IMG/VR virus record: IMGVR_UViG_3300044641_005618 | Length of the DNA stretch: 64,000 nt | Direction: 5' to 3' (one strand) | DNA from: a virus | Taxonomy: Duplodnaviria > Caudoviricetes | Shown: positions 173 to 62,998 of the stretch, one piece after another | Layout: the number at the start of each line of letters is the position of its first letter | How positions within the stretch are numbered: the first letter of the stretch is position 1 | Position numbers and translations under genes: made by a program | Notes under the pieces: generated by a model | The model's database searches: none | Seen by the model: the letters and a program-made list of their open reading frames with translations, nothing else | Told to the model about the DNA's origin: nothing

Positions 173-180
173 ATTTACCC
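173..180 (-). promoter_or_regulatory. GGGTAAA late-type promoter motif
   Basis: GGGTAAAT, 21 nt before ATG 151. Confidence 0.7.
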
Positions 181-402
181 GCAATTGCTTCGCAATTCGC
201 TGAGAATGTGGTCTATGCTAGCAGGGTGGAGTAGTTCGGTTGTGGTTGGCGAGGAATAGCGATAGCCATGGGAGCGAGCCCATTTGAGTAGGGACTGTTC
301 AAGGTCGAAGCATTCTCCGAGGGTGGCGTGGTGATTTCTACACTGAACTGTCTCCCGGTGACTATTTAACACCAGGTTTTCCAAAAAAGACGTAGTAGTC
401 AA
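175..402 (-). CDS. hypothetical protein
   Basis: 75-aa ORF on the coding strand with a TTG start; no recognisable motif. Confidence 0.35.
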   Translation of the reverse strand: MTTTSFLENLVLNSHRETVQCRNHHATLGECFDLEQSLLKWARSHGYRYSSPTTTELLHPASIDHILSELRSNCG

Positions 403-966
403 AGAAAGTGTCGCTAAGACTTAGTCTGTCTTCGGAGGAATACTTAATTTTACCAAGGCCCTCTATGCGAAAACCTCTACGTTTGATTCCACTGGATCTC
501 CCACTTTTCGCTGCTTGCCCTGGAGCATAAATTCCTACTCCTCTTTCTTTGATGACTTGATTACCTTTAGCTCCCCCTACCCTTTTTTCCTCCTGCACTC
601 TTCAGTGTTTCCCTTTAAGGCGTTTAGTCTTTGCCGATCTGAACTCCAAAAACCGGTTTTATTTCTCTTACAAACTTCGTGGGTTGCATAGGCGCCCAAC
701 ACAGGAATAACAGAGTCCCCTCCTGCTTTAACCCTTCCTGTCATCATATTCACTGAGGCTAAATCTTTAGTCTCTCCGTAAACTTCCCAACGAATCCTAT
801 GCGCTTTTATGTGGTCTTTGACTAAGCACTCGACTATGTTGTCCTCTTTGTATTCGCCTCCAGCGTGACCCGGTAAAATGCGATGAGTTTGAGATGATAT
901 ACCATGACCTAGAAGTGCTTTCTCTTTTTCTTTGAGATGTAGTATATAAGAAGTGTACTTGTCCAT
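362..966 (-). CDS. free-standing HNH-like homing endonuclease, apparently split by a frameshift near 577-598
   Basis: ORF 577..966 has an HNH-like pattern (THRILPGHAGG..N.V...H..AH); ORF 362..598 continues the same K-x-x-G-x-G repeat style (KRNKTGFW / KERGVGIY); the two overlap by 22 nt across an A6 run. Confidence 0.55.
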
Positions 967-1023
967 AGAAAATCCTCCACGCTTGTTATAGCGCAGAGGA
1001 CAGTGCAGTAAAGATTGCTAAAA

Positions 1024-3044
1024 TTAGCCTACACTTGGTGCGGTCAAAGCAACTGGCGTTGCAGCGACAGAGGCCAAATCAAGGGGAAAATTATGGGCAT
1101 TCATTACCCGGTAGGGTAACCGCTGTTTCCAACGGGATCGGACTATATCATCAAATTGCTTTTGCAATTTGTCGGGCGCTAATCTGGTTTTACGTAGCAC
1201 GCTTGTTACACCCAGTAGTCTCTGAACCTTCCTTAGAAGCGTCTAAGGCTTGGCTGCTGATTGGCCCTTGGGCTTTCCAGCAATTCACCCGATTTAAAGA
1301 GCGCAATGCCTAGTTTCACGCTCGTGCATAACTTCTAAGCCTAAATTTGCTTTATTAAGCAAATCTGCCCAAGTGTTAACCACACGACCCTGGCTATCTT
1401 GAATGGACTGGTTAAAATTGAAACCATTTAAGTTAAATCCTGCGACAAAGATACCGCAAGCAGCAAACCAGATTCCAATCACAGGGAGTGCTGCCATAAC
1501 AAAGTGCAGAGAGCGACTATTGTTGAAAGAAGCGTATTGGAACAAGAGGCGTCCCAGATACCCGTGAGCGGACACCAGATTGTAGGTTTCTTGGTTTTGC
1601 CCAAATTTGTAACCGTAGTTCTGACTTTCATTCTCAGTGGTTTCTCTTACCAAAGATGAGGTTACAAGAGAGCCATGTGTGGCACTGATTAAAGCACCTC
1701 CGAACACACCGGCAACTCCAATCATGTGGAAGGGAGACATTAGTATGTTATGCTCCGCAGAAAAAACCAACATGAAATTGAACTGGCCGGAGATTCCCAG
1801 AGGGAATCCGTCAGAGAATGATCCTTGGCTGATGGGGTAAGCCAGGAAAATTGCGGTTGCCGCTGCTACGGGGGCAGAGTAAGCCACGCAAATCCAGGGT
1901 CTTTGGCCGAGGCGATAAGAAAGTTCCCACTCACGCCCCATGTAGCAAAAGATGCCAATAAGGAAGTGGAAAACGATAAGTTGGTAAGGGCCACCATTGT
2001 AGCAGGGTGGCGTCCGCTAGTTCCCTAACGGCGTGGACTATATTATCGTTTTGCTTCGCAAAACAAAACGTCGGGAGCTCTAGCCTGTCATTAAGAAACA
2101 CTGTAGTTTCTCAGGTAGTCTCTGAACGTTCCTCCGGTGTACCGAAGGCTTCGCTGCTGATTGCCCGTTTTGCAGAAGCAAAACTAGGGTTCCCAGTCAA
2201 TTCACCCGATTTAGGGTGGCCCTACAGGCTGAGCCACTCATCAAGGGAAGCAGCTTCCCAGATTGGATAGAACACCTACCCGTAAGTTTCCTTACGGAGC
2301 TGACTATATCATCAACTTGTAAACAAGTCGTCGGGCGCTAGCGGTGTATTACATCCCACGCTTGGGAAACCACCTAGTCGATGAACGTTTCCTAGAAGAT
2401 CGTCTAGGACTTCGCTGCTGATTGCCCGTTTTGCTAAGCAAAACTAGGGTTCCCAGTCAATTCACCCGATTTGCTTACGGCCTCACGGCAGTAAGGCACT
2501 CCTTTACGAATGCAATCCAATCGCATTAGAACTTGGTACTACGGCACCACTGATGCTTTCTCTGTGAGAAAGTGGACTATATCTTCATCTTTGTTTTTGC
2601 AAAGAGCTGGGCGCTCTGTTTACTTCTTTTCGATGTAAAGCCTGTTATTAAGAAACACTGTAGTTTCTCAGGTAGTCTCTGAACGTTCCTCCGGTGTACC
2701 GAAGGCTTCGCTGCTGATTGTCTTAGTATCCCAACTTTGGAGTTGAATACTCAAGGTATCCCAGCAATTCACCCAGTTTACTTCTGCGAATCACTTCGCA
2801 GTGACACCATCTAGATGTTGTTGCCGTACATAAGCGAACCAGCAACTGGCTCACGAATTCCGTCGATATCGACAGGAGGTGCTGCGACGAACGCAACGAT
2901 GAAGCAAATAGTTGCAGCTAGCAACGTGGGGATCATGATTGTACCGAAATTTCCGATATATAACCGGTTGTCGGTACTCGTGACCCAACTAAGGTAACGC
3001 TCCCAAAGATTACTCTGAGGACGTTGTAAAACTGAACTAGCCAT
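1024..3044 (-). CDS. psbA: photosystem II D1 protein, 5 exons (3044-2815, 2555-2510, 2272-2232, 2002-1318, 1101-1024), 359 aa
   Basis: Exons sum to 1080 nt and restore canonical D1 across each junction: YGNNI|[15 protein letters not shown]|[14 protein letters not shown]|YNGGPYQL...VMHER|[10 protein letters not shown]. Confidence 0.97.
1102..1317 (-). mobile_element. group I intron 4 of psbA (216 nt, ORF-less), between codons R334 and N335
   Basis: 5' exon ends in U (CGU), intron ends in G; conserved elements AAAUCGGGUGAAUUGCUGGAA, AAUCAGCAG, GUUCAGAGACUA and GAUAUAGUC. Confidence 0.93.
2003..2231 (-). mobile_element. group I intron 3 of psbA (229 nt, ORF-less), within codon L106
   Basis: P1 pairing of exon GUGGCU with intron GGCCAC places a U.G pair at the splice site; terminal G; core elements present. 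Confidence 0.92.
2273..2509 (-). mobile_element. group I intron 2 of psbA (237 nt, ORF-less), after codon H92 (nt 276)
   Basis: Exon ends CAU, intron ends G before UUC UAU CCA; core elements present. Confidence 0.92.
2556..2814 (-). mobile_element. group I intron 1 of psbA (259 nt, ORF-less), within codon I77
   Basis: Exon ends AU, intron ends G before C AUC AGU GGU; core elements present. Confidence 0.92.
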
Positions 3045-3240
3045 TTAGCATGATTAAGTAAGTGATCTTAGGGAAAGATCTGTTACAAAACCCTCACTAC
3101 CCTAAGGTGAGGCAGGATGAGAGACAGATTGACTTGCCTAGTCCCGGTAGCGGCAAGGCGGTTGAAAGAATCAACCGCGACACAGGTAGTATAGGGTGCT
3201 TAGCGATCGGTAAACGTTGGTTCCAAAACTTTGCTGGAGG

Positions 3241-3379
3241 AAAACTTTACTGCTGTACCGTCCGGTCTCACACGCCGTGTAAAGACATACTCACCACCTT
3301 CAGTAAAGTTTACAGACTAAGTATGAGTTGCAAGCTGAGCAAACTGCTCAAGTACGGTTTCGGAAAAAGACCCTTGCAG
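3241..3379 (-). pseudogene. decayed copy of the leader + YDFTRC cassette
   Basis: Reads (L)QGSFSETVLEQFAQLATHT*SVNFTEGGEYVFTRRVRPDGTAVK: CTG in place of ATG, in-frame TAG at 3319-3317, D>V and C>R in the module. Confidence 0.75.
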
Positions 3380-3472: not shown

Positions 3473-4630
3473 TCAGGTAGTGGAGTTAAAGGTCCTATGA
3501 GTCGTATAAGGGGTAGCTTTCAGAGACTCTTCGAAGAATCCGGGTTTGTTTGTCTTAAGCCCTGCCCCAAAAATAACCGTATGCCAAAGGGATATCTCTC
3601 TAGAGCTTTCTTTAAACATGTAAGTTTGATCCAGACTCGCCTCGGAAGAGGTGGAGGGGACCATTTTCCCGTTACTTTTCTTGGCATACTGGTTCATCCC
3701 TGGCGGTCCATCAATTTCTTCCCCGTCCTTCGTCGTTTTTGGTCTGGAAAATCCCATCTTAACATAAGCGTCCATTCTACTCTGACCCCTACCGTCTTCC
3801 GTCCAAGCTTTCGTCGTCACTACGGCGCCCTCTGGAAGAGACTTAACAAGAGCTTCGTACGTACGACGGACGGTGTTTGCCACTTCAATTTGCTCCCCTC
3901 TCTGCGTTACTGTACCCGCGTCATACTTTCCGTTAACCTTAAAGTCGAAGTGTTTTCGCCCAAACTCCGTCTTCACACGATGTCCTGACTTTGTTGTGAC
4001 TTCAGTGACGATGCTCGCAAAGGGGGAAGAAACGAAGACTTTGGTTCCCGCCGGAACGTTGTCCACCATACCGCTTAGGATTTTTTCGTTAGTCTTAAAT
4101 TTGTTTAGTTCCTTGTTGAGCCTTTCCAGCTCAAAGTCTAGGTATTCGTCAGGTTTGGGGTGCTTCTTCTTATACTCATTTAGTTCTTTTATCTTCTCCT
4201 CTATACTCTTCCTGGGCAAACCCCCTGTTAGCTTAGTGGTATCACCTACCAACTCACCTCCGATTTTGGGCTTAGTTGGTTCCTTTGGCTTGGGAGGTAT
4301 CTCTGAACCTTTCTTCTCGTCAATTAGCTTCTGAATCTTGGCGGCCTGGTGAGGCTTTACTCTCGGATCACCTGGAAGCTTTTCCAGGTCCCCGACGGAA
4401 GGGCTCTTAACCGTCTTCCCAACGCGCATTTCTCGAACCCTCGGTGGGACTTCACCCTTGGCCTCTTCCGTACCCTTCCTACACTGCCCCGCCGTCCCAT
4501 ACACAGTACCGTCCGGTTTCACACAGCGTGTAAAGTCATAGGTTTCCCCCTCAGCAAAATCCGCACCTTGCAGTTTAATCACAAGATTCCTGTAGGAATC
4601 TAGCGCAATTTCTGAGAAGTAACCACCCAT
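3473..4630 (-). CDS. modular-family protein: leader + YDFTRC + DPR module + GNAT-like C-terminal domain
   Basis: Start revised to ATG 4630 (MGGYFSEIALDSY); DFAEGETYDFTRCVKPDG; C-terminal GRGQSRMDAYVKMGFS resembles the GNAT R/N-x4-5-Y-x-K-x-G-F motif. Confidence 0.7.
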   Translation of the reverse strand: MGGYFSEIALDSYRNLVIKLQGADFAEGETYDFTRCVKPDGTVYGTAGQCRKGTEEAKGEVPPRVREMRVGKTVKSPSVGDLEKLPGDPRVKPHQAAKIQKLIDEKKGSEIPPKPKEPTKPKIGGELVGDTTKLTGGLPRKSIEEKIKELNEYKKKHPKPDEYLDFELERLNKELNKFKTNEKILSGMVDNVPAGTKVFVSSPFASIVTEVTTKSGHRVKTEFGRKHFDFKVNGKYDAGTVTQRGEQIEVANTVRRTYEALVKSLPEGAVVTTKAWTEDGRGQSRMDAYVKMGFSRPKTTKDGEEIDGPPGMNQYAKKSNGKMVPSTSSEASLDQTYMFKESSREISLWHTVIFGAGLKTNKPGFFEESLKATPYTTHRTFNSTT

Positions 4631-4652: not shown

Positions 4653-4660
4653 TTTTACCC
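4653..4660 (-). promoter_or_regulatory. GGGTAAA late-type promoter motif
   Basis: GGGTAAAA, 22 nt before ATG 4630. Confidence 0.75.
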
Positions 4661-4667: not shown

Positions 4668-6152
4668 TCAGACGGATGAAAGCAGTGTAAGGTGTTTCTT
4701 CGCCCGAGTAACCTGTACATAGCACAGATTGCTTTCCTGAGCAAGCTCCCACGGCTTCTTCGCCCAGCGGCTCGGGCTCAGGCGGTCCATATCCAGTGCA
4801 AACACGCGGTCCCACTCTCGCCCCTTGGCCCGGTGAATGGTAGACAGTGTGAGGACCTTTCTCTGGTTTCCTTCGCTGTCCGAGAAAAGCTCTCGAATGT
4901 TGTTCACAAGAACCTCAATCGAGTCGCCAGGATCGCAGTTTTCAATCAGAACACGAAGCGTCCCCACCTGGTCTTCTACCGTGGAGCACCGGTCGTTGTT
5001 GCCCTTCGCCTGGGCTTTGGTCATTTCGGCACCTTCCCACTGCTCCAGCCTCTCTTCAAGCTGAGCAACCGTGGTAACTTTTTTCCATCGCTTTGCCAGC
5101 TTGATTAGGCCCTCCCCGATGGCCCGCCCTTCAACTCTGCACGCTGTGCCCTCACGCAGCAATTTGTAGGCAAGTTCGATAAGGGGCTTCGTGGTGCGGC
5201 ACAGGATGGCGTCCGACGCCCCAAATTCCCCTTTGCCTATGGCTTTTTTGACGGTCGTGCTATCCACAACTCCCTCTGGAGCACTTTCGTGTGCCTCAAT
5301 GTGGCTGACCCACTCCTGGGCTTTTGAAACAATCTTCTTGGGGCACCGGTAGGTGACAGTGAGTGGAAGCTCTGTGGCTTGAAACTCCGTTGCAATGTTC
5401 TCTAGGGAGGCATGGTCAGCCCCGGTGAATCCGTAGATCGCCTGGTGTTCGTCACCCACGGCGACAAAACGCCCAGTCGGCTTCAGCATTTTCTTCATCA
5501 TTGCTCGACGGACGAAGTTCGCGTCTTGCGCCTCGTCTAGAAAGCACCAGTCGTACTGACGAAATGGAAGGTTCTTCACCAGCGGTCCATAAATCATGTC
5601 GTCAAAGTCCACGACTTTGCCCAGCATGGAGTTGCTTTTGCGCACCAGTTTCACCGTTTCACGAATGGCATCGTCGTAAGAGACGTCTTCAGGGAGCAAG
5701 TCTCCGAGAGAAAAATGGCTTACCATCGCGTCCCAACTGAACGCAGGGTCAATTTGGTAGCCGAGTTGCTTTGCCATTGCCGCTGTGGCGACGCAAAACC
5801 GGCGAATTCCCCAGTTTTCTATCGTGTCCTCCGCAATGTTTCCCAGTTTCTTCCCGTCAACCTTAATGTTTTTATGAGCAGCACGCAGCGCAGCGAAGCC
5901 GAACGAGTGACACGTCCCGGTCCGCACTCGGCTCTGCAGCCCCAAAGGTGCTACACGCTGAGCAATCTCCTCAGAAATTGCCTTGTTGTACGCACAGAAC
6001 GCCACTTCCCCTTCTGTCTCGGGGAGCATTTCCACCAGCAGGGTGGTCTTTCCAGACCCCGCTACTGACCTTACGATGAGGTTACCGGATCCGGTTCGAA
6101 CCCAACCCTTGGCGGCTTGCTGCTGAGGGGACAGGGAGAGAGTGGTTTTCAT
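4668..6152 (-). CDS. UvrD/Rep-like superfamily 1 helicase
   Basis: AGSGKT, DEAQD, VGDEHQAIYGFTGA, TYRCP, STIHRAKGREW and YVQVTRAK motifs. Confidence 0.93.
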   Translation of the reverse strand: MKTTLSLSPQQQAAKGWVRTGSGNLIVRSVAGSGKTTLLVEMLPETEGEVAFCAYNKAISEEIAQRVAPLGLQSRVRTGTCHSFGFAALRAAHKNIKVDGKKLGNIAEDTIENWGIRRFCVATAAMAKQLGYQIDPAFSWDAMVSHFSLGDLLPEDVSYDDAIRETVKLVRKSNSMLGKVVDFDDMIYGPLVKNLPFRQYDWCFLDEAQDANFVRRAMMKKMLKPTGRFVAVGDEHQAIYGFTGADHASLENIATEFQATELPLTVTYRCPKKIVSKAQEWVSHIEAHESAPEGVVDSTTVKKAIGKGEFGASDAILCRTTKPLIELAYKLLREGTACRVEGRAIGEGLIKLAKRWKKVTTVAQLEERLEQWEGAEMTKAQAKGNNDRCSTVEDQVGTLRVLIENCDPGDSIEVLVNNIRELFSDSEGNQRKVLTLSTIHRAKGREWDRVFALDMDRLSPSRWAKKPWELAQESNLCYVQVTRAKKHLTLLSSV

Positions 6153-6172
6153 GAATGGGCTTTCATGATCTA

Positions 6173-6201
6173 ATTATACCGTTTCTGACGAGCAGAAACA
6201 A
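6173..6201 (-). promoter_or_regulatory. sigma70-type (early) promoter of the helicase
   Basis: TTGTTT-17 nt-TATAAT, 20 nt before ATG 6152. Confidence 0.7.
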
Positions 6202-6293
6202 GCCGGGAAACCGGCCAAGGCTGGGCGGTAAACCGCCTTCCCCCCGCGAACAGCACAAAAGTATTTGCATACTTAGTTGTGTAAGAGCTGTCT

Positions 6294-6461
6294 TCAGCGA
6301 GCTTGGTTGAGCAATCTCTGTCCGAACTCTCGTAGGTCTTGATTTCTTTCCAAATTGCCAATCATCATCGCCATTCTCCCCACTTCAGCACTCCCATCCG
6401 TTTTTAGAGCGTCCTGGACCAGGGGGTCGGCCATGAATTTTTTGATTGAGTCTTTGTTCAT
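6294..6461 (-). CDS. 55-aa ORF translationally coupled to the 758-aa modular protein (candidate immunity/partner)
   Basis: Manual translation MNKDSIKKFMADPLVQDALKTDGSAEVGRMAMMIGNLERNQDLREFGQRLLNQAR; ATGA overlap with the upstream stop. Confidence 0.7.
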   Translation of the reverse strand: MNKDSIKKFMADPLVQDALKTDGSAEVGRMAMMIGNLERNQDLREFGQRLLNQAR

Positions 6462-8734
6462 AGGAATAGTTCTCCGGCGACATCAAGATTAGGGAAAGAC
6501 TTGCACGCTGCATCCAGCAGCTTGTTGAATCCGGGTGTTTTCTCCATTTCCCTGTACTTTCTTATAAATTTGTCCCAGTTGGCTCGCTCGTATCCATCTT
6601 CTTCTGTAAAGAAGTATTTTGTACGGTACTTTACTTTGATATTGTTCCTCTTGTCTAAGACCTGAATGTCCCGTGAAACGTATCTTTTTAGATCTCTGTC
6701 AGTTAACTCGGGGCTATCCCCACGACCCTTAAGGGAAGCTGAACGGTGGAGCAGGTTGACTAAAACTTCTTCCGCAGGTGAGGGACTAAACGAGCCAATA
6801 CCAAACCACTCTCCAATTTTTTCCGGGCCACCGAGAAAACTGTGTAGTAAAACGTGGACTCGGTCGTGCTCCCAGTCGACTGAGCCCGGATACGCAGTTA
6901 GGCCAGCTTTTTTCCTCCATTCCTCCGCAGCGGCTTCCACAGCGACGAAGTCCAAGTTGTTCCCCCCTTCAAACAACCTTTTCGGTGCTTTACTTGTTTT
7001 GGGTCGAGGTTTTTTCTTGTCTGCCGCCTGCTCTACCCCTTTGCGACACTTTCCTTTCGTGCCGTACGCAGTGCCATCGGGCCTCACACAACGTGTAAAG
7101 TCATAGCGTTCCTCTTCGGAGAAGCACTCATCGTTTAGCTCAGAGGTGAGCTGTGAGTAGGCAACTAGTGAACTTTCGGAGAATGTTCCGTTCATTTTGC
7201 TCTTGGCGAGGGCTGGGGCAACAGGGTCTTTTGAGGTCGTTTTGCTCTTAGGGGGTGGTTCCCATGAGTGGTCCTTCATGAGCTGATTATACCGTCTTTG
7301 AGCCTCTAACATCCTTGTAATTTCCTCGCGGTTGAGCGCACCCTCCTTGTCGAGTGCCGTTTGCAGTTCAGCCCTGGCTTTTTTCGTCGCCAGGGTGCCC
7401 CCGTAATTCGCCCGCACACGCTCGGTAATGTTCGCGTTAAGAACCATTGCGTTACCCAATTCCTGCCCTCTCAGTTCTCTCTTCGGTGCAAGTTCCTGGC
7501 GCCTTTGACCTTCTTTCGCCGCTCCCCTGGCGGGAGAGGAGTCCCCGACCATCGTGTCTTTCTTCGCCCCTCCAGGGTTCCGATCGTCCATTGCATCGTT
7601 AACACGTCGCATCCGTATTTGGGCCAGTCGATTTCTGTTAGCGTACACAACTCGCCCTGCTCGCCCTTCTGCGTTGGATAACCTGCTCCCCAAAGGTGCC
7701 TGAAGCGCACCACGGTCTCTAAGGTAGTCTTGTGCTTTAGCGCCTATCTGTTCGCCCCTTTTGAACATAGCTTCAGTTCTTCTTGCCATTGCAACTGAGT
7801 GTGGTAATGTACCCCCCTTGGAAGTTGCCGCTTGAGGTCCCTTTAACCCCTCCCCCTGCTTCTCCTTCAACAACTTATTCAGCTGCCCCCTTTGCCTATC
7901 ATTCAGTCTCGGGTCACTCAGAACTTTCTTAAGGTCCTCAGCCCCCAAAGCCTTAATCTTCTCAGTAACCCGCATTCCACCCGGCTTCGCCCCCCTCTTC
8001 TTCTTGTCCGACACCATCTCCTTGCTTGGAGTGGGGTCCGCAGCCTGAGAAATTCGGGCCTTGCTCGGAAACTTTGTGACCCCGCTCGGAGTCAGGTTCT
8101 CTGGTACAAGGGGAACCATCACACCGGTCTCAATTCTCCCTTTGTCCAGGGAGTCCCGAATTTGCATCTTCGTCTGATTGAGCTTTTTATAGGCACTACT
8201 CAACTTTTCAATCTTATCCTGTGTGGTTTTCCTTAGGTCATCAAACTTCGGTGAGTCTGACATGCGCTTCAGCAACCCCTCCTGGCGGCTTAGCTTCTCT
8301 CCCACCTCTTTCATTTTCTCGTTAATTACAGCCCAGTGCTCACCGGTTAGAGCCGCTTTGACTTTGCCCTTTGCACCCACCGTTTGAGTCCGCCCAGAGC
8401 TTTCTACAATCTTCGACCCTTTCGGGAGCATTCCCGCAAGTTGGCTTATTGCATCGTTCTCTCCCTTGTCCTCTTGGACCCCCTTGCGGCAGGTCCCCCC
8501 GGTGCCGTATGCAGTGCCATTGGGGCGGACGCAGCGGGTGTAGTCGTAGTTCTCAATGTATTCTCCGCGAGCCTCACCGGATTTTGCAACAAATTGCTGC
8601 TCTCCACGACTCCTAGCCCCTTCAGAGAAATCTTGAAGTCCCCCTACACTTGAGATGGCGGACGCTTCGTAGCCTGCATCCCGCATCATCGCGAGAAACT
8701 TTTCGGCGGAGTCAGGGGTGAAGGAGCCTTGCAT
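6458..8734 (-). CDS. modular-family protein with two leader + YDFTRC units, a DPR module and a C-terminal HDxxH domain
   Basis: MQGSFTPDS...YDYTRC at the N-terminus; internal MNGTFSESSLVAY (ATG 7195)...CFSEEERYDFTRC; C-terminal WEHDRVHVLLH...AEE. Confidence 0.8.
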   Translation of the reverse strand: MQGSFTPDSAEKFLAMMRDAGYEASAISSVGGLQDFSEGARSRGEQQFVAKSGEARGEYIENYDYTRCVRPNGTAYGTGGTCRKGVQEDKGENDAISQLAGMLPKGSKIVESSGRTQTVGAKGKVKAALTGEHWAVINEKMKEVGEKLSRQEGLLKRMSDSPKFDDLRKTTQDKIEKLSSAYKKLNQTKMQIRDSLDKGRIETGVMVPLVPENLTPSGVTKFPSKARISQAADPTPSKEMVSDKKKRGAKPGGMRVTEKIKALGAEDLKKVLSDPRLNDRQRGQLNKLLKEKQGEGLKGPQAATSKGGTLPHSVAMARRTEAMFKRGEQIGAKAQDYLRDRGALQAPLGSRLSNAEGRAGRVVYANRNRLAQIRMRRVNDAMDDRNPGGAKKDTMVGDSSPARGAAKEGQRRQELAPKRELRGQELGNAMVLNANITERVRANYGGTLATKKARAELQTALDKEGALNREEITRMLEAQRRYNQLMKDHSWEPPPKSKTTSKDPVAPALAKSKMNGTFSESSLVAYSQLTSELNDECFSEEERYDFTRCVRPDGTAYGTKGKCRKGVEQAADKKKPRPKTSKAPKRLFEGGNNLDFVAVEAAAEEWRKKAGLTAYPGSVDWEHDRVHVLLHSFLGGPEKIGEWFGIGSFSPSPAEEVLVNLLHRSASLKGRGDSPELTDRDLKRYVSRDIQVLDKRNNIKVKYRTKYFFTEEDGYERANWDKFIRKYREMEKTPGFNKLLDAACKSFPNLDVAGELFL

Positions 8735-8753: not shown

Positions 8754-9041
8754 TTATTTTACCCTGTTTGCTTCGCAGGCGTAAAGGGGTGGTTTACCCC
8801 TCACCTTGATCCCCCCCCCCCCTCCGCAACCACTCTTAATCTCCTCGGACCGCACCCACTCCTTCAACCCAGCAACGTACGCCCTTAGCAACTCAGCTTG
8901 TTGCAAGTTCTGGGGGCACCCCGTTCTAAGATGCAAGGACATGTGTCGGTCTATTGCATCTAGGCAGGTTTTGATAACAGGGTTCCACGGTTCCCTGACC
9001 TCGGTGTTGTATGTTCTTTTTGTCTCGTCAAAGTTTTCCAT
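8754..9041 (-). CDS. hypothetical protein with a G12 tract near the 3' end
   Basis: 95-aa ORF; REPWNPVIKTCLDAIDRH segment resembles small cyanophage hypothetical proteins. Confidence 0.6.
   Translation of the reverse strand: MENFDETKRTYNTEVREPWNPVIKTCLDAIDRHMSLHLRTGCPQNLQQAELLRAYVAGLKEWVRSEEIKSGCGGGGGIKVRGKPPLYACEANRVK
8757..8764 (-). promoter_or_regulatory. GGGTAAA late-type promoter motif
   Basis: GGGTAAAA, 22 nt before ATG 8734. Confidence 0.75.
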
Positions 9042-10133: not shown

Positions 10134-11153
10134 TTAGAGGCCGCTCTTGAGTCCGGTGGGCTTGCCCTTGACGCTGGTGACGATCCGACCATCACCGCTA
10201 CCAGGACCCCGATCCCAGAAGATGCGATCAAAGGTGTCGTAGCTGTATTCGTCGTAGGCACCGCCGATGCCGATGTCGTAGCTATCGGAAGCACCATGGC
10301 GGGTGCCAAAGGGATCGTGGACAAGCCAAAGCTTGCGTTCGAGATCGTGCCCAACCAACAACACAATATGGCCACCACTCTTATACTTAACGCCGATCAC
10401 CACTGGAATATCCTTGCTCAAAGAGAGTAGGAGATCATCGGCTGAAATGCTCTGCTGGGTGTAATAAGATTCGATGCCTAGATCCTTGAGGGCCTTGGTC
10501 TGGCAATTGTGATCTATGGTGTCACCGTAGGGGGCAAGCAGCTTCTGGTAAGCCGATTCCGGTTCCTTTAGACCCTGGCTAGTAGCGGAGCGGCTGAGCT
10601 CGCCATTGAGGAGAAAATCAGCCAACATCGTGCAAGAGGTAAGATTGCACTGGCGGTATCCGTTACCAAAGGTGGGATGCCAGTCGTTATCCGTTTGGCC
10701 AAGATATTTGACAGGAAGCTTGATCGCCTGCGGCTGACCCTCAAGCTCGACATGGGGCTGATAGGCATACACCGTATCCAGTTTGGTTTTGCCATCGCTA
10801 GCCAGGATGGGGGTGACAAGCTGGAGCTTGACGTGTTGAAAACGGTCGGGGGTGATAGCGCTGACCGGCAGCCGGGTGCCCGCCTGGACCAAAGTCTTTT
10901 CAGAGGGTTCCAGATCTTGGGAACCGACTGGATGATTTTTAAAAATGGTAGTGATACGGGCGGTTACAGGTTGTGTGGGCGGAGTGTAGGGCGTGCGGTA
11001 TTTTCGCACCCATTTTGCTTCGTCGGTGAGCAGCTCGGGTTGCTTCGCAAAAACTTGCTTAGCAAAGTCGAGGAAAGCAGCTTCTTGGTTGGGGTTATCG
11101 CTTCTACGGTGTCGAACGAAATCGAGAAACTTTTCCGGTGTGAATTGTGGCAT
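10134..11153 (-). CDS. C39-like cysteine peptidase (putative cell-wall hydrolase) sharing an N-terminal module with the GH19 lysin
   Basis: YRQCNLTSCTM (Cys), GGHIVLLVGHD (His), WLVHDPFG (Asp). Confidence 0.8.
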   Translation of the reverse strand: MPQFTPEKFLDFVRHRRSDNPNQEAAFLDFAKQVFAKQPELLTDEAKWVRKYRTPYTPPTQPVTARITTIFKNHPVGSQDLEPSEKTLVQAGTRLPVSAITPDRFQHVKLQLVTPILASDGKTKLDTVYAYQPHVELEGQPQAIKLPVKYLGQTDNDWHPTFGNGYRQCNLTSCTMLADFLLNGELSRSATSQGLKEPESAYQKLLAPYGDTIDHNCQTKALKDLGIESYYTQQSISADDLLLSLSKDIPVVIGVKYKSGGHIVLLVGHDLERKLWLVHDPFGTRHGASDSYDIGIGGAYDEYSYDTFDRIFWDRGPGSGDGRIVTSVKGKPTGLKSGL

Positions 11154-11188: not shown

Positions 11189-11196
11189 TTTTACCC
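11189..11196 (-). promoter_or_regulatory. GGGTAAA late-type promoter motif
   Basis: GGGTAAAA, 35 nt before ATG 11153; three 8-nt repeats lie in between. Confidence 0.65.
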
Positions 11197-13426: not shown

Positions 13427-13993
13427 TCATCGCATTCTTCCACTAACTACTCCACCCTTAATACCCGACTCTACTCTTTTACGGAAAGAGTCTCTCTTTC
13501 TCTCTTCCGGGGTCATAGCCTCACGCTCTTTCGCTTCCTTGGTCCCAGCCTCGCTTCTACCCTCAAGTTTAAGCCTTTCTGCCATAGCCTTCTTTATGGC
13601 TAAGGCGTGGCCCTCTTTCACATCGGTTTCATCGTTGTCTATGGCTTTAATCACCGCCTTATGAATTGCCCCCAAGTGCTTCACTGACTCTGCCTTTGCG
13701 TAAATCTTGTTAAAGGTCTCGTCCGCGTCACTATTCCAGCTTATATTTCGTTTAGCGTCCTCTCTCGCTAGCTCCAGTTGTTCCGGCGTCATTGGGCCGA
13801 ACCCATGGCTTTTTGTTATGGCCACCTCTATTCCCTTGCGGCATTGTCCCGCCGTCCCATATGCGCTACCATCAGGTTTTACACATCGAGTGTAGTCGTA
13901 CGATTCTCCCTCAGAGAAGTTCTGGGGGTATCTTTGAGAAACAAGTGCTTCGTAAGCTGAGAGGGCTTCACAGGAAAAGGAACCGTTTGCCAT
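13427..13993 (-). CDS. short modular-family protein (leader + YDYTRC + basic helical tail)
   Basis: MANGSFSCEALSAY...QNFSEGESYDYTRCVKPDGSAYGTAGQCRKG. Confidence 0.85.
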   Translation of the reverse strand: MANGSFSCEALSAYEALVSQRYPQNFSEGESYDYTRCVKPDGSAYGTAGQCRKGIEVAITKSHGFGPMTPEQLELAREDAKRNISWNSDADETFNKIYAKAESVKHLGAIHKAVIKAIDNDETDVKEGHALAIKKAMAERLKLEGRSEAGTKEAKEREAMTPEERKRDSFRKRVESGIKGGVVSGRMR

Positions 13994-22631: not shown

Positions 22632-22639
22632 CTACAATA

Positions 22640-49507: not shown

Positions 49508-49515
49508 TTTTACCC
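49508..49515 (-). promoter_or_regulatory. GGGTAAA late-type promoter motif
   Basis: GGGTAAAA, 26 nt before GTG 49481. Confidence 0.7.
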
Positions 49516-54331: not shown

Positions 54332-54339
54332 TTTTACCC
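54332..54339 (-). promoter_or_regulatory. GGGTAAA late-type promoter motif
   Basis: GGGTAAAA, 40 nt before ATG 54291. Confidence 0.6.
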
Positions 54340-54341: not shown

Positions 54342-54503
54342 TCAAATGTACCTCGCTGCCTCTTTCGCCTCAGAGCTCACTCCGCGTTTCCCAAGCTCCA
54401 TTGCCGTGTTAAGAATTTCCCGAGCGCGACTTCTTTCGCGTGGGTTTCCCCTCACCCTCTTGTAGAGGGACATTAAGTCCAGGTACTTTTGATCCTTTTC
54501 CAT
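54342..54503 (-). CDS. kinase-partner small protein B (53 aa)
   Basis: Manual translation MEKDQKYLDLMSLYKRVRGNPRERSRAREILNTAMELGKRGVSSEAKEAARYI; TAATG overlap. Confidence 0.8.
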   Translation of the reverse strand: MEKDQKYLDLMSLYKRVRGNPRERSRAREILNTAMELGKRGVSSEAKEAARYI

Positions 54504-55771
54504 TAACTAACCCCTTCGTATAGTATGGAAATAAGCCTTGCAGCGTCGTCCTTGCCGATCTTACCCCAAGCACCTTTGTTGTAAGAGCTGAGTGGTTGGT
54601 CTAAACTGTGGGTCACCACCTCAGCAATATCGTCTTTGTTAAGACCAAGCTTTTCCATCTCGGTGTAAACTTTGATTCGGTTTCGTATAATCTTCCCGAG
54701 GTTTGTTTGGGGGGTAGTACCCTTCGAAGTAGCTGTAGCGGATGGTGGCAAGTAAAACTGCTTGTTGTCTCGTGCCTGGAAATCCCCTGAGTTTTCATTG
54801 AGTGGCTTTCTGAGCATTGCACCAGGGGGTAGTAAGTACCTCACCGATAAAACTCCAATGGCCTCTGAGAGAGCTGCACGAGGGTCATCCTGTGAAACAC
54901 CGAAGTCAACAAAACGTGCTTTCCCCTTGTCATCGATAATTACGTTTCCTACGTGGGCGTCATTATGGGCAACACCTTGCTCATGGAGTTTCTTTCGTAG
55001 GGCGTAGTAAGAGTCGCCCACAGTTGTGTTTCCAACTGGGCTTTCGTAAGAGTCAAAGTCTTCAGCTGACTTACCCTTTACACGGGACATTGCTATTCTT
55101 CCAGGGTAGTACCCAGCGTTGTTGAACTCAGCAGACTTATTCATCTCAGCCGAGATTAGCTTGGGGGTTATATCCTTTCCACTTAATTTCTCAAGAATTC
55201 TCACTTCATTTTCCCCCACCTCCCCTCTTTTCACGACTACGGACGGGGGTGGTTTGGATGCAATTACCGCTCCGTACAATCCTGATCCTAGCCCTTTTGA
55301 CCCCGACTCGTACGACTGTTTCCAGTCGTAGCTACCACCTAACTTTAGGGTTGGTGTGAACTCGGTGTCGAATTCGAGTGCGTTTTGGCGTTCTTGAATA
55401 GCTGGGCGGTCCGCCCTGGTGTGCTTAACCCATGTGTCAAAGAGTGCCTTTTCAACTTTCGTAGCCCTGTCTATCTCCTCGTCCGTCATATACTCTTTGT
55501 TACGTAGCTCAGCAAGCTGGCGCTCTGCCTCCCGCTTTAACGAGGGGAAGTCACTACTGGCATTGACCGTTGCCTTCGGGCCTAAGGCTAGGGCATCAAT
55601 AAGGTCCTTGACCAAGGGGTTTGTCTCGCCATTCTTAGCAACTTTGCCTGCTAAGGACCCCTGTAAGTTTTCTACTTGGTGGGATAGTTTAGGGGTCAAG
55701 GAGGCTCTGCACTTAGCCTCGCGGCTAATGCAGGTACCTCCACAGCTCTTCCCCTTAGTGCAGCGCTTCAT
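54503..55771 (-). CDS. protein kinase with an N-terminal C-x5-C-x3-C-x6-C module
   Basis: MKRCTKGKSCGGTCISREAKC; LGSGLYG, VVK, HNDAHVGNV, FVDFG. Confidence 0.88.
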   Translation of the reverse strand: MKRCTKGKSCGGTCISREAKCRASLTPKLSHQVENLQGSLAGKVAKNGETNPLVKDLIDALALGPKATVNASSDFPSLKREAERQLAELRNKEYMTDEEIDRATKVEKALFDTWVKHTRADRPAIQERQNALEFDTEFTPTLKLGGSYDWKQSYESGSKGLGSGLYGAVIASKPPPSVVVKRGEVGENEVRILEKLSGKDITPKLISAEMNKSAEFNNAGYYPGRIAMSRVKGKSAEDFDSYESPVGNTTVGDSYYALRKKLHEQGVAHNDAHVGNVIIDDKGKARFVDFGVSQDDPRAALSEAIGVLSVRYLLPPGAMLRKPLNENSGDFQARDNKQFYLPPSATATSKGTTPQTNLGKIIRNRIKVYTEMEKLGLNKDDIAEVVTHSLDQPLSSYNKGAWGKIGKDDAARLISILYEGVS

Positions 55772-56223
55772 TTTCTATTAGCGACTTCACCTGGTTCTTT
55801 GAAGTTATGTAGCAGTTCTTGTAAGCGATCGATACGGGTACTCATAGAGTCAATCCGCTCTGAGTAGGAAGTCTCCATACCGGCAGCGATATTGTGGTCG
55901 TCATTGTTCTTTCGAGCCAGGTCAAGCGTTGCCATTTTGCCGTCAATTTCCTCGCGCTCTTTCACAAGTTTCTTTGTCGCAGCCATCTGCCTTTGAAGTT
56001 CTTGAAACGCTCCACGCTGTCGAGAGAGCTTCATGGCAAAGCCCAAGTCAGCAATTGCTCTCGATATCGCTTCGTGCCGCTCGCCCATAGCGTCGTACTC
56101 CCCGAAGCTGGGGCGGAGAGTCGAGGTGGCTGAGGGTTCCATCACAGTTCCTCGGTAGTAATCCGTCGGAGTGTGGGAGAAACCTTCAAGCTGAAGTTCA
56201 TTCTCGGGGAAGTTAGGATTCAT
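55768..56223 (-). CDS. hypothetical coiled-coil protein
   Basis: 151 aa; contains SFGE and SYSE motifs; late motif upstream. Confidence 0.6.
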   Translation of the reverse strand: MNPNFPENELQLEGFSHTPTDYYRGTVMEPSATSTLRPSFGEYDAMGERHEAISRAIADLGFAMKLSRQRGAFQELQRQMAATKKLVKEREEIDGKMATLDLARKNNDDHNIAAGMETSYSERIDSMSTRIDRLQELLHNFKEPGEVANRK

Positions 56224-56263: not shown

Positions 56264-56271
56264 CTTTACCC
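56264..56271 (-). promoter_or_regulatory. GGGTAAA late-type promoter motif
   Basis: GGGTAAAG, 40 nt before ATG 56223. Confidence 0.6.
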
Positions 56272-58197: not shown

Positions 58198-58572
58198 TCA
58201 ATCTTCGTATTGCAACGCGTCGGCAACCGAGGTCATGCTGTTCTCAGCCTCAGCCAACTTTGCCGCCATCCACGGACTCAGATTCGTGTAAGGCCCAACC
58301 AGTTCCAGTATAGTTTCAATATTGTCCCTCATAGATCGCAACTGAGAAATGGCCATGCTGCCGTTCGGTTCGACTTCCCTGTCGTCTTCGGCAGCGTCTT
58401 CGTAGTCGGAGTCGTAGTCATCCTCGTCGTCCTCACCCATAAAGAAGGTGTCAGGGTCCCTCCCTGGCTCTTTCTCGAATGCTGGAGCAACTCCCATGAA
58501 GTTGCTGGGGTTTTCAACCCCGTACTTGTAAGCGCTGTAAGCTTCCGGTGAAAAGGATCCCCAGTGACTCAT
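58198..58572 (-). CDS. leader-bearing small acidic protein
   Basis: MSHWGSFSPEAYSAY; MA.SQL......I...L....WM..KL..A...M..V.D pattern seen in cyanophage structural proteins. Confidence 0.72.
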   Translation of the reverse strand: MSHWGSFSPEAYSAYKYGVENPSNFMGVAPAFEKEPGRDPDTFFMGEDDEDDYDSDYEDAAEDDREVEPNGSMAISQLRSMRDNIETILELVGPYTNLSPWMAAKLAEAENSMTSVADALQYED

Positions 58573-58596: not shown

Positions 58597-58604
58597 CTTT
58601 ACCC
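58597..58604 (-). promoter_or_regulatory. GGGTAAA late-type promoter motif
   Basis: GGGTAAAG, 24 nt before ATG 58572. Confidence 0.72.
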
Positions 58605-58979: not shown

Positions 58980-59774
58980 TTACTCCGGCAACCTTGACTG
59001 ACCAGCTTCGACCGCTGCTCTAGCTGCTTTCCTTGAGCTCCTTCTTGCACTCGGAGCCTCTTCGCTGAAGTCTGGGGAAGGCAAGCCTGACTCCCCTTGC
59101 CCCATTCGATCTTTCACCGTTTGGGGAAGACCCGACTCCCAGCCGTACTTCTTAGCAATGCGAATAATCTCGGACATAATTTTGCGCGGGTTCGCTGCCC
59201 TGCCCACGGAAGACCACGCCGCTGAGACATCTTGAGTGCTCGCAATGGGGAAGGACATACCGGGCCCAGCAAACTCTCCCCGCTCCTCTCCGGACTGCAG
59301 CTTCTGCCTTTTATTTGCGGACCACTCTCGAAAGTCTGCGTCGCTTTTCGCTGCTGCTTTGCAAGAGTCGCATTTGCATTTTCCAGTCCCTTTGCACGTT
59401 GTTTGTGAGAAGGGCTGAGGCATAGACATTAGCTCAGTGTCATCGGCGAAATTATACTCTTTTCTTTTTATTTCACGAAATGCCGCTATCCTGGCCCGTT
59501 TACGCCCGAAAATCTCTTTCATAGCAGCTTGGCCGTCTGCGTGAGCATCTCGGTCACGATTGACTAAGTTTTCTTTCTTCTGACGGCTAGCCTTGTTGGC
59601 GTCTAAGAGTGCCTCGTTGTGAAAAGACATATTACCGTCTTTGTCAGTTCGCCACTTTTTTCCTGTGCGGTTCATTTCCTCAAGTTTGTCTGTGGAAATA
59701 GCTGTAGCCGCATTCATGGAACCGCCGACTCCCGGCAGGGTTACAGACGAAAAGTCTAAGTTAGCACCGTACAT
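58980..59774 (-). CDS. hypothetical probable head-associated protein with a Cys cluster
   Basis: CKGTGKCKCDSC; FAGP..SFPI....DV..A...GRA; YNFAD, DFRE and DFSE motifs. Confidence 0.65.
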   Translation of the reverse strand: MYGANLDFSSVTLPGVGGSMNAATAISTDKLEEMNRTGKKWRTDKDGNMSFHNEALLDANKASRQKKENLVNRDRDAHADGQAAMKEIFGRKRARIAAFREIKRKEYNFADDTELMSMPQPFSQTTCKGTGKCKCDSCKAAAKSDADFREWSANKRQKLQSGEERGEFAGPGMSFPIASTQDVSAAWSSVGRAANPRKIMSEIIRIAKKYGWESGLPQTVKDRMGQGESGLPSPDFSEEAPSARRSSRKAARAAVEAGQSRLPE

Positions 59775-59797: not shown

Positions 59798-59805
59798 CTT
59801 TACCC
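59798..59805 (-). promoter_or_regulatory. GGGTAAA late-type promoter motif
   Basis: GGGTAAAG, 23 nt before ATG 59774; GTTT 13 nt further upstream. Confidence 0.72.
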
Positions 59806-59853: not shown

Positions 59854-60174
59854 TTAGACCTTACTTTCTTCGTCCAAGTTGTCGTCTTCTTTGGTCTTGC
59901 GCTTGCGGCTCCCTCGCACAGTTGAAATTATTTCCGAAACATTTTGCCCTGAGGAGGGGACTAAAAGTGCTAAAATTGTGGTGAGTGCTAGTTTCCCGGT
60001 CTCGTTAAAAGTATTGGTCGCATTGTTACAGATAAGGGTTACTTTTGTGGAGTCTTTGTCACGTTCTGCGTAGGACTGGCAGGACCACGTTTGATACCCT
60101 ACAATTAGAAACTGAATTAGAAATATACCTGCTAATGCTCGAATAAGCAGAGCTCTCTCGTTGAATTGAACCAT
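59854..60174 (-). CDS. two-transmembrane small protein (possible holin)
   Basis: Two hydrophobic segments and a highly charged C-terminal tail. Confidence 0.5.
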   Translation of the reverse strand: MVQFNERALLIRALAGIFLIQFLIVGYQTWSCQSYAERDKDSTKVTLICNNATNTFNETGKLALTTILALLVPSSGQNVSEIISTVRGSRKRKTKEDDNLDEESKV

Positions 60175-60195: not shown

Positions 60196-60203
60196 TTTTA
60201 CCC
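60196..60203 (-). promoter_or_regulatory. GGGTAAA late-type promoter motif
   Basis: GGGTAAAA, 21 nt before ATG 60174; GTTT 14 nt further upstream. Confidence 0.7.
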
Positions 60204-60890: not shown

Positions 60891-61493
60891 TTAGTCATGG
60901 CCAGGGTCAAGGTCAGAGTCAAGGTCAGAGTCAAGGTCGTCTTCGCTTTCATTCAAGAGCTCGTCTACTATGCGGTCAATATCCTCGTCAGATAGCTCTT
61001 CGTCATAGTCGTCTTCCAGTTCTTCCAGTTCGTCCGACTCATCCAGCTCGGATTCTTCGCTCAAGAGCTCGTCGATTAACCGTTCTACTTCGTCATCGGT
61101 AAGCTCCGGCTCGTCTTCTTCGCCCGTGTCAAAATAAGCGTCATCTTCGTAGTCGTCATCTTCGAGCGAATCCTCAGAAAGCTCTTCACCGTCGCCATCT
61201 GCAAGAAGCTGATCAATAAGCTCCTCAAGCTCTTCGTCGGAGAGCTCTTTCTCGGGTTCTTCAATTCCTGGAACAAGAATTTGATTGGCTTGAAAGTCCT
61301 TGTTTGACCCGTCGTTCGCTTTCCACAAACCAGTGTGCTGAATCCACGGCGAAGTGTTCAGAACTAAGTTGGTTGGAAGGCCCGTGTATTTATCAGTCTC
61401 TTGGTCTTCCGGCTCAAGGATCTGTGCTGCGTAGGCAGCTCTGAACGCTTCAATCGAGTCAGTGTCGAAGTCACCGTTGATTCTGTTAGACAT
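60891..61493 (-). CDS. leader-bearing, extremely acidic protein with three ELsDEE..liDeLL repeats
   Basis: NGDFDTDSIEAFRAAY leader; ELSDEELEELIDQLL, ELTDDEVERLIDELL, ELSDEDIDRIVDELL. Confidence 0.75.
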   Translation of the reverse strand: MSNRINGDFDTDSIEAFRAAYAAQILEPEDQETDKYTGLPTNLVLNTSPWIQHTGLWKANDGSNKDFQANQILVPGIEEPEKELSDEELEELIDQLLADGDGEELSEDSLEDDDYEDDAYFDTGEEDEPELTDDEVERLIDELLSEESELDESDELEELEDDYDEELSDEDIDRIVDELLNESEDDLDSDLDSDLDPGHD

Positions 61494-61516: not shown

Positions 61517-61524
61517 CTTTACCC
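61517..61524 (-). promoter_or_regulatory. GGGTAAA late-type promoter motif
   Basis: GGGTAAAG, 23 nt before ATG 61493. Confidence 0.72.
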
Positions 61525-61902: not shown

Positions 61903-62238
61903 TTATGCTCCATTACGGGGCTTTTCCACCCATTCTTTGTCGTAGTCAGCGTAATGCCGGCCCTTTTGCTTTTCCTTGAGTGGCTTTGCCGATGCTTTGT
62001 TCGACTCTCTCATACCAAGGATCAAGGTGTCTCGCATTGCTCGAAGTTGCTCGCGGGGGATTGTGCACAGGTTGCTGTCGCGATACGAACGGAACTTGTG
62101 AGCAACATCTGAAGGGTCGTCACACTGCAAGAAAACGGACCATACCCCGTAGGATTGAGGGTGGCTGAGGGAGCCAGGCGGTAGGCTTTGCTCCAAGGCC
62201 AAGCGGTCGGGGCGAGGGAAGCGAGTGTCTCTCCTCAT
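61903..62238 (-). CDS. hypothetical protein
   Basis: 111-aa ORF in the operon. Confidence 0.6.
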   Translation of the reverse strand: MRRDTRFPRPDRLALEQSLPPGSLSHPQSYGVWSVFLQCDDPSDVAHKFRSYRDSNLCTIPREQLRAMRDTLILGMRESNKASAKPLKEKQKGRHYADYDKEWVEKPRNGA

Positions 62239-62342
62239 GGTTTTGCCTCAAGGCTGGGCTTTGGCGGGGCACAAATCACGGTGCTGTTGTTATGTCTGGC
62301 TATGGTGAGTTTTACCCCCCCCCTCTCCATTTTAACCTTAGA

Positions 62343-62356
62343 GGGGCCGAAGCCCC
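62343..62356 (-). terminator. UUCG-tetraloop hairpin, possible terminator
   Basis: GGGGC-TTCG-GCCCC just after the stop at 62359; weak U tract. Confidence 0.5.
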
Positions 62357-62358
62357 TG

Positions 62359-62943
62359 TCAATCTTCTGTGTCTACTCCGGGAATTTCTCCTCTGAACAT
62401 CATATCGTCGTCTGTTTGCCTTGCCCAGTAACTCTCTTTCAGGTCTGAAACTGAGGGAAGGCCTCTTTTCGGTATGTTAAAGTCTTTTAAGGCTTCTACC
62501 ACTTCTTTAGCAATTCCTTGTCTCTGCGATTTAGTTAATTCACTGGGCCATAACTCATCTTTTCGAATTTCTTTAACAATAGATTCAACGGTTAAATTAA
62601 CCTTGGCTTTAACCATAGACGGGGTTGTAACCTTGCCCCCACTTCTTTGAGCTGTGGCTTTCTTTTCTACCGGTTGTTTGGCTTCTTCAGTACCCTTCTT
62701 ACACTTCCCTCGGGTGCCATAGGCCGAGCCGTCGGCTCGGACACACCGTGTAAAGTCAAAAGAGCCAAGGAGTGTGTTCACAGCTTCTTCAATGAATGGG
62801 TATTTGTTCCCGTAATTTTCAGAGAAGGACAAACCTTCGGATGCTAACGCATCCGCTTCATTGCGGAGTTCTAAAGCTTCGCCTAAGTTACCTTTCAGTG
62901 CTTCTGAGAGGGCTTCGAGGTAACAGTGGTCGAGTTTGTTCAT
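62359..62943 (-). CDS. modular-family protein with an FDFTRC module
   Basis: LSFSE...FDFTRCVRADGSAYGTRGKCKKG; start revised to ATG 62943. Confidence 0.82.
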   Translation of the reverse strand: MNKLDHCYLEALSEALKGNLGEALELRNEADALASEGLSFSENYGNKYPFIEEAVNTLLGSFDFTRCVRADGSAYGTRGKCKKGTEEAKQPVEKKATAQRSGGKVTTPSMVKAKVNLTVESIVKEIRKDELWPSELTKSQRQGIAKEVVEALKDFNIPKRGLPSVSDLKESYWARQTDDDMMFRGEIPGVDTED

Positions 62944-62990
62944 GGTTGACAATCAGAAAGTTGCGGGAGAGTTTCACCCCCATCTTTTTA

Positions 62991-62998
62991 TTTTACCC
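62991..62998 (-). promoter_or_regulatory. GGGTAAA late-type promoter motif
   Basis: GGGTAAAA immediately after the phoH terminator, 47 nt before ATG 62943. Confidence 0.6.

Follow-up and report, generated by a model that had tools for sequence, protein, structure and literature searches.

A GGGTAAA(A/G) word as the putative core of a post-early promoter class in a large lake cyanophage encoding two sigma factors

A stretch of viral DNA of 64,000 nucleotides (nt), taken from the IMG/VR record IMGVR_UViG_3300044641_005618 and referred to here as the window, carries the word GGGTAAA(A/G) shortly ahead of many of its genes, and it also encodes two sigma-like proteins, sigma 1 (16420-17097) and sigma 2 (22017-22631). 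This raises the question whether the word is a promoter element and, if so, which sigma factor reads it. The gene content of the window lies almost wholly on the minus strand, the sole plus-strand gene being 39812-40573, and only 8.1% of the window is non-coding. Besides the sigma-like genes the window encodes functions of nucleotide metabolism and replication (ribonucleotide reductase, thymidylate synthase, dCMP deaminase, MazG, PhoH, a helicase and an intron-split primase), tail-fibre, tape-measure-like and endolysin-like genes, and psbA. A second IMG/VR record (G002; 277,244 bases, 98% complete) is about 93-96% identical to the window and represents a sister strain. The phage is a large lake-water cyanophage of a cyanomyovirus lineage of roughly 277 kilobases (kb); that it is a large myovirus follows from the tail sheath, portal, head protease, baseplate wedge, adaptor and large terminase genes which G002 adds. 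The closest cultured phage is Synechococcus phage S-CBWM1 (genus Aokuangvirus, NC_048106), which has homologues of sigma 1 (YP_009816510; 52% identity) and sigma 2 (YP_009816500; 48%) in the same gene order and the motif ahead of virion genes, whereas its genome measures 139 kb as compared to about 277 kb. The S-CBWM1 record labels both proteins merely "RNA polymerase sigma factor".

A preliminary description of this DNA had listed 17 copies of the word and proposed to check their enrichment. Enrichment was indeed found: GGGTAAAR occurs 22 times in the window versus 5.77 expected (standard deviation 2.66), and none of 100 shuffles reaches 22. Non-coding DNA holds 15 of the 22 copies (binomial p 4e-12), and GGGTAAA is the most frequent sense-strand 7-mer of the intergenic DNA. 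With 21 copies on the minus strand and one on the plus strand, the distribution is strongly biased (p 5e-6), and the single plus-strand copy (39786) sits 21 nt ahead of the sole plus-strand gene, so that the strand flip noted earlier is borne out. The distance between motif and start codon is mostly 21-26 nt, with a tight mode at 22-25 nt. All 17 sites listed before are present at the distances given for them, which, counted from the end of the 7-mer, amount to 22-27 nt in the first group of 12 and to 36-48 nt in the remaining 5. The listed 8-mer is correct in general, except at 173, where the sequence reads GGGTAAAT; exact copies at 15051, 21681, 25072, 40731 and 57094, and in addition the site at 62310, had been missed.

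Aligned sites of the window, hereafter class I sites, read purine-GGGTAAA-R-Y-T, followed 7-8 bases further on by an A in 13 of 18 sites. A -35 element was not detected, as no upstream column exceeds 0.3 bit among 18 window, 31 G002 and 28 S-CBWM1 sites. An AG-rich upstream tract of the kind found in SigF promoters is seen in the window for the last 10 nt only (p 0.002), and it is absent at the S-CBWM1 sites. Several sites directly follow hairpin-plus-T terminators (62953-63060, 62239-62358, 33772-33823).

Comparison with related genomes points to selection on this word. Between the window and G002 it differs at 2 of 152 positions, whereas the flanks of 40 nt differ at 119 of 1487 (Fisher p 9e-4); the two substitutions give forms known from other sites (GGGTAAGT, GGGTGAAA), and the word is intact even where the flanks are just 77-85% identical. 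The site below sigma 1 (16231) reads GGGTAAAA, GGGTATAA, GGGTAGAA or GGGTAAGA in relatives whose sigma is 61-87% identical and whose flanks are unrelated, GGGTAnnA being retained throughout. S-CBWM1 has GGGTAAAA at this site, and a short contig with a sigma of 40% identity retains GGGTAAAA at the same place. In S-CBWM1, GGGTAAAA is the top 8-mer of the whole genome (33 forward versus 1 reverse) and GGGTAAAAT the top 9-mer (19 versus 0). Control cyanophages with other sigma factors (S-CBS2, Cr-LKS4) display neither motif excess nor strand bias. Judged by these comparisons, the motif is a functional, strand-specific signal before genes that is under selection.

Which genes carry this signal may be seen best in the two relatives. 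In G002, 33 of 41 promoter-like sites fall within 160-270 kb, the part containing the virion genes and the window, and the genes for sheath, portal, protease, baseplate and adaptor have sites ahead of them. In S-CBWM1, where the spacing to the start codon varies from 20 to 96 nt, the motif lies 20-35 nt ahead of about 30 annotated genes and 60-96 nt ahead of the sheath gene, the major head gene and one other. Genes headed in this phage encode sheath, portal, head protease, major head protein, tape measure, tail fibre and endolysin and include baseplate/neck operons; the motif also heads PhoH and NMN-adenylyltransferase genes, and one site lies 61 nt before nrdB. The earlier assignment of the class to virion, lysis or late genes hence stands insofar as nearly all recognizable virion genes of the relatives are included, and falls short insofar as the run from speD to nrdB, nrdA and sigma 1, as well as PhoH and NMN-adenylyltransferase, are headed by it too. 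Class I may thus be described as post-early rather than strictly late.

It is very probable that the class I motif acts as a promoter. Transcription of the divergent plus-strand gene has to begin within a gap of about 70 nt that holds the motif and nothing else of this kind, several sites come after terminators, the spacing between motif and start codon varies (20 to 96 nt), and the word equals a known DNA element of the family to which a phage-encoded sigma belongs. The same four points speak against a role of the word in RNA, be it as an endoribonuclease processing site, by which long transcripts would be cut into gene-sized messages, or as a leader element aiding translation. Such a role is quite improbable in our judgement, even though the motif is strand-specific and intergenic and often keeps a constant distance of 21-26 nt to the start codon. 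The available RNA data are lake metatranscriptomes in the form of assembled contigs, with 17 runs containing parts of 54-63 kb. Some of these contigs end 11-25 nt inside predicted starts (59776/59777 in two studies, 54300, 54314, 62289), and others run across several sites, which indicates that read-through transcripts exist and counts in favour of a role in RNA. That the sites are functionless leftovers of duplicated gene-cassette borders, or a quirk of composition, is hardly credible: one motif-bearing leader module is indeed duplicated at three places in G002, but flanks are unrelated at most sites, the word is retained across genomes with 40-52% protein identity, it changes much less than its flanks, and shuffled sequences never match its count.

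A second repeated unit (class II) of about 48 nt consists of a GC-rich hairpin box of the GGGCGGTTTACCC type, TTGTTT, a 17-nt spacer with a small inverted repeat, and GGTATAGT. About 45 copies occur in G002 between 5 and 165 kb, their orientation always being that of the gene. The window contains two such cassettes on the minus strand. The cassette at 6153-6293 (GGCGGTTTACCGCC box, CTTGTT, spacer repeat, CAGAAACGGTATAAT) precedes the helicase gene 4668-6152, and the cassette at 22632-22720 (GC-rich boxes, -35-like TTTGCC, TATACT at 22640-22645) precedes sigma 2. The TATAAT and TATACT promoters attributed earlier to the helicase and second sigma genes are therefore present, as parts of a longer repeated cassette of early type. 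A third motif, as expected for a middle class, was sought by k-mer enrichment and by inspection of upstream regions lacking both classes, which gave only weaker copies of the early cassette. Matches to GGGTAAAC-CGCCC were considered as class I candidates and rejected; they are part of the GC-rich boxes of the early cassette and occur on either strand.

Both sigma genes are genuine, each scoring above the Pfam Sigma70_r2 cut-off. For sigma 1 (minus strand) the match of region 2 to PF04542 amounts to 34 bits as compared to a cut-off of 24, and 21 of 21 aligned relatives match as well. Its top family matches, which extend over regions 2 to 3 only, are cyanobacterial SigF, SigB/F/G and FliA/WhiG; among solved structures, Bacillus SigF, Staphylococcus aureus sigma B and cyanobacterial SigA come closest to it. 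Over the helix that recognizes the -10 element and into the beginning of region 3.0, the sequence of sigma 1 is RGYIQHALRDYSRMVKTPRW, where SigF of Nostoc and Thermosynechococcus has RGEIQHYLRDK...V/IR.PRRW. The string common to sigma 1 and SigF, RG.IQH.LRD....V(K/R).PR.W, is a criterion of our own for region 2.4/3.0 and not a curated one; it is not found in sigma 2, which reads RGAVQGAARKEK. For region 4 (PF04545/PF08281), the C-termini of sigma 1 and nine relatives were searched without a match, and a distant homologue, P0241, has a region 4 match with an E-value of 1.6e-17. Relative to SigF of Nostoc and Thermosynechococcus, the sigma 1 family lacks 11 residues, which takes away the turn of the region 4.2 helix-turn-helix along with the portion that reads DNA. 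The AlphaFold model of sigma 1 (mean predicted local distance difference test, pLDDT, 82) displays three C-terminal helices. A sigma factor that is unable to read a -35 box would fit promoters that lack one. The view of sigma 1 as a SigF homologue can be kept in the sense that it is nearest to the SigF/SigB-type group 3 factors and shares their recognition string; it fails the family score, however, and is devoid of the region 4.2 helix-turn-helix. Homologues of sigma 1 are numerous in metagenomes (more than 800, on contigs of up to 280 kb).

Sigma 2 (minus strand) comprises region 2 and a complete region 4, with a score for the ECF superfamily that lies at the cut-off, and it adjoins the class II cassette directly upstream. 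The AdoMet decarboxylase gene 21296-21634 (minus strand; PF02675, E 3e-25) heads a run of genes ending with nrdB, nrdA, sigma 1 and an nblA-like gene, and no terminator was seen in the run of about 5 kb from the sigma 2 cassette to nrdB, nrdA and sigma 1. G002 has exactly two sigma genes, and no homologue of the polymerase beta subunit was found there; a search of G002 for a T7-type polymerase was likewise empty, which says little, since control genomes gave no match either. The proposal that the second sigma forms a middle tier of a cascade gained no support; an early-type cassette lies upstream of it, and the search for a third motif was empty.

Based on this dataset, we hypothesize, with somewhat more confidence than doubt, that class I sites are post-early promoters of the extended -10 type which are read by the host core polymerase together with sigma 1. 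GGGTAAA(A/G)(Y)(T) would form the core of this second promoter class. The sigma A holoenzyme of the host would fire the early cassettes, and read-through from the cassette before sigma 2 into nrdB, nrdA and sigma 1 would provide the first source of sigma 1. Sigma 1 would then bind host core polymerase and open class I sites, the GGG (about -15 to -13) being read in double-stranded form by the PRW/region 3.0 end, and TAAARY (about -12 to -7) serving as melting element. Transcription may start about 6-7 nt past the 8-mer, at the frequently conserved A, which would give leaders of 15-20 nt for most genes and of 60-100 nt for the most abundant virion proteins. A boost of sigma 1 would then come from the class I site at 21681, as from its S-CBWM1 counterpart before nrdB, and might close a positive feedback loop; SigF is autoregulatory as well.

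Several observations weigh against this proposal. Sigma 1 stays far below the family cut-offs of NF005644 (SigF; 45.6 versus 261) and TIGR02980 (44.8 versus 234), as compared to 421 and 406 bits for the true SigF of Nostoc and Thermosynechococcus, which makes a specificity read off about 20 residues a presumption. No clear motif is seen on two contigs (L033, L036) whose sigma 1 homologues are about 30% identical. The RNA evidence consists of assembled contigs without start-site information, several of which cross the motif. A sigma factor without -35 contact is no evident source of strong and timed transcription, and sigma 2, being an early gene, may just as well form the following stage of a cascade.

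This last point leads to a different order of events, in which host sigma A acting on the early cassettes makes sigma 2, and sigma 2 in turn activates class I including the sigma 1 operon, leaving sigma 1 to serve a further class. The position of sigma 2 directly behind an early-type cassette would agree with this order, as would the class I site heading the sigma 1 operon both here and in S-CBWM1; the co-occurrence of both sigma factors with the motif in every relative checked speaks for it, too. Nevertheless we regard it as rather unlikely, because sigma 2 has a complete region 4 while the sites have no -35 box, because it lacks the SigF-type residues of region 2.4/3.0, and because no motif was found that would be left for sigma 1 to read. 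Alternatively, the phage might borrow a SigF-like group 3 sigma of its host, with the phage sigma factors competing with those of the host or altering host programmes. Host SigF reads -12 boxes of the GGGTAAG type (PMC2532724), and many genomes of the picocyanobacterial family carry full-length group-3-like sigma factors (130-209 bits), which likewise tells against sigma 1 as the reader. On the other hand, the SigF cut-off is not reached in any of 61 genomes from that family, small genomes are devoid of any such gene, the -32 box required by SigF promoters is absent from the phage sites, and the phage itself encodes a sigma factor with a matching recognition helix, so that borrowing appears distinctly improbable. 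A variant of the reading by sigma 1 has a small though appreciable chance of being correct. Here sigma 1 would be a minimal SigF-derived sigma that reads the GGG-TAAAA box only and, like gp55 of phage T4, needs a second input, which could be a co-activator, replicating DNA, or the hypermodified thymine of the phage (word and complement together hold five T). If so, late transcription would be tied to the condition of the phage DNA, and a widespread freshwater lineage would have invented the T4 solution independently a second time.

SigF of Synechocystis PCC 6803 requires in vitro a GGTAA box at -12 within GGGTAAG, which outweighs the -32 box; its pilA1 and sigF promoters combine the -12 element GGGTAAG(TT) with a TAGGC box at -32 and an AG-rich tract, and SigF regulates its own gene (Asayama and Imamura 2008, PMC2532724). 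The GGGTAAG-like element given in the preliminary description is correct, being a -12 element. The resemblance to the phage system comprises the group 3 nature of the sigma factor, a -12 word that is almost the phage word, and the recognition stretch RG.IQH.LRD...PR.W in common with sigma 1. It differs in that SigF has a full region 4 and a -32 box, whereas the phage sites have no upstream box and sigma 1 no region 4.2 helix-turn-helix. Promoters of sigma B and sigma F in Firmicutes and Actinobacteria read GTTTAA-N12-15-GGGTAT, with two boxes, and are subject to partner-switching control. A GGGTA-type word, presumably a -10 element in the phage, and PRR/PRW after region 2.4 are common features, and sigma B (8x6g) is among the best fold matches; the phage, in contrast, has one box, encodes the sigma itself, and no anti-sigma gene was seen.

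Late transcription of phage T4 involves the sigma factor gp55, gp33 and the sliding clamp gp45, acting at the promoter TATAAATA (PMC2988020). Because sigma 1 is without a region 4.2 helix-turn-helix and the promoters are without a -32/-35 box, the present system is more like such a -10-only late system. An 8-bp, -10-only promoter just before late genes and a small sigma that does not read a -35 box are alike in working and not in homology; the phage word is G-rich at its start, unlike that of T4, and sigma 1 keeps region 3 and derives from group 3 sigma factors. No gp33-like candidate was found as a partner of the T4 type, and nothing links the system to gp55, gp33 or the clamp. In Bacillus phage SPO1 a cascade is formed by gp28 and subsequently gp33/gp34, with a -35 as well as a -10 box in the middle and late promoters. 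Two phage sigma genes are a feature in common, those of SPO1 reprogramming host core polymerase in temporal steps, whereas here one phage-specific class with one box is visible. By descent the nearest known system is cyanobacterial SigF with its GGGTAAG promoters, by working it is T4 late transcription, and the phage system is a member of neither.

No paper describing the motif for these phages was found in the literature covered, which did not include the genome description of S-CBWM1 (Xu et al. 2018). The present analysis offers a testable transcription programme for widespread, almost unstudied cyanophages of lakes and estuaries, of which S-CBWM1 is a cultured relative (with Synechococcus sp. 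CBW1002 as host) and whose genes appear in lake metatranscriptome assemblies. According to this programme, early cassettes of host type are followed by about 40 one-box promoters, most likely read by a pared-down phage sigma. This would show a cellular alternative sigma factor reduced to a switch for late phage genes, in parallel to gp55 of T4. The motif permits annotation of late genes in genomes whose virion genes mostly have no recognizable family, and a compact, orthogonal pair of sigma factor and promoter may possibly be useful for the engineering of cyanobacteria.

The individual class I sites are described here along the window, on the minus strand unless stated otherwise. At 173-180, GGGTAAAT lies 21 nt before the ATG of a gene running past the window start, and G002 has GGGTAAGT at this place. 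The site at 4653-4660 (variant GGGTGAAA in G002, flanks 82% identical) stands before 3473-4630, the product of which (385 amino acids) displays a weak likeness, below cut-off, to PhiKZ capsid decoration. Further sites are found at 8757-8764 before 6458-8734 (758 amino acids, no assigned function), at 11189-11196, 35 nt before the endolysin-like gene 10134-11153, at 14015-14022 before 13427-13993, and at 16231-16238 before the kinase-like gene 14641-16206. The AdoMet decarboxylase gene has its site at 21681-21688 (47 nt upstream), which is kept in G002. At 33810-33817 the motif follows a hairpin and T-run and precedes the tape-measure-like gene 30127-33771, and the site at 36042-36049 precedes 35347-36018 and 33824-35356. 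The plus-strand site of 39812-40573 occupies 39786-39793; the arrangement is the same in G002, and the S-CBWM1 orthologue has the variant GGTAAAAT.

The variant GGGTATAA at 42646-42653, upstream of the tail-fibre gene 41322-42611, is identical in G002 with flanks of 77% identity. Two sites lie before long structural genes, namely 49508-49515 before the tail-fibre gene 45993-49481 and 54332-54339 before 49519-54291, a tail-fibre/structural gene of 1590 amino acids. The site at 56264-56271 heads 55768-56223 together with the kinase-like gene 54503-55771. It is followed by 58597-58604 before 58198-58572 and by 59798-59805 before 58980-59774, where the ends of two RNA contigs at 59776/59777 give a weak hint. 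The genes 59854-60174 and 60891-61493 have sites at 60196-60203 and 61517-61524. After a GC hairpin, 62310-62317 lies 72 nt before 61903-62238. Finally, 62991-62998 directly follows a terminator-like hairpin, is succeeded by the variant GGGTGAAA, and precedes 62359-62952. Beyond the first list, exact 8-mers also start at 15051, 25072 and 57094.

Some further observations concern these sites. An exact GGGTAAAA at 40731-40738 (minus strand) has no minus-strand gene behind it, and a transcript from it would be antisense to 39812-40573; this copy may be due to chance, since it is lost in G002. The leader module at 62686-62998 (GGGTAAAATAAAAAGATGG, then GGGTGAAAC and the start of the gene) recurs at the three places in G002 at about 167.6, 205.0 and 218.6-218.9 kb, and looks like a duplicated cassette of promoter plus N-terminus. 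Sense-strand runs of 8-14 G stand just upstream of several sites (63905-63920, 62318-62325, 8800-8812 and others), and of 18 minus-strand copies of GGGGGGG, 9 fall in non-coding DNA.

Next to sigma 1, a gene of 69 amino acids (16236-16442, minus strand) starts 20 nt inside the sigma 1 end, and the TAA within the class I site at 16231 serves as its stop codon. It is present in all relatives, where its start overlaps the sigma 1 stop as ATGA, and it is unannotated in S-CBWM1. The product resembles NblA, which functions in the degradation of phycobilisomes; it scores 16.8 bits against PF04485, and the L015 homologue 26.6 bits. It had been considered as a gp33-like partner of sigma 1, which was dropped owing to this NblA likeness. 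A match to the sigma factor in "Microcystis phage MaAM05" (L121, MW495066.1, 274 kb) was excluded from the comparisons, as the region around it looks like a bacterial chromosome (rpsA, ispH and fliA at 9.8-13.2 kb).

The psbA gene (1119-2858, minus strand) is split by four group I introns (Rfam RF00028, 67-105 bits). Its exon 1 was inspected for a clue to the host and points to none, with 70-77% identity to many unrelated cyanobacteria. A fifth intron (26150-26378) divides the DNA primase gene into 25066-26163 and 26361-27356. The words GGGTGAA, CAATCAGCAGC and ATATAGTC are repeated because the cores of group I introns contain them; GGGTGAA and ATATAGTC, both enriched in non-coding DNA, were for this reason rejected as promoters. 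Weak protein-kinase-like stretches occur in two large proteins of class I units, encoded on the minus strand at 14641-16206 and 54503-55771, and the annotation of S-CBWM1 includes several Ser/Thr kinases and phosphatases.

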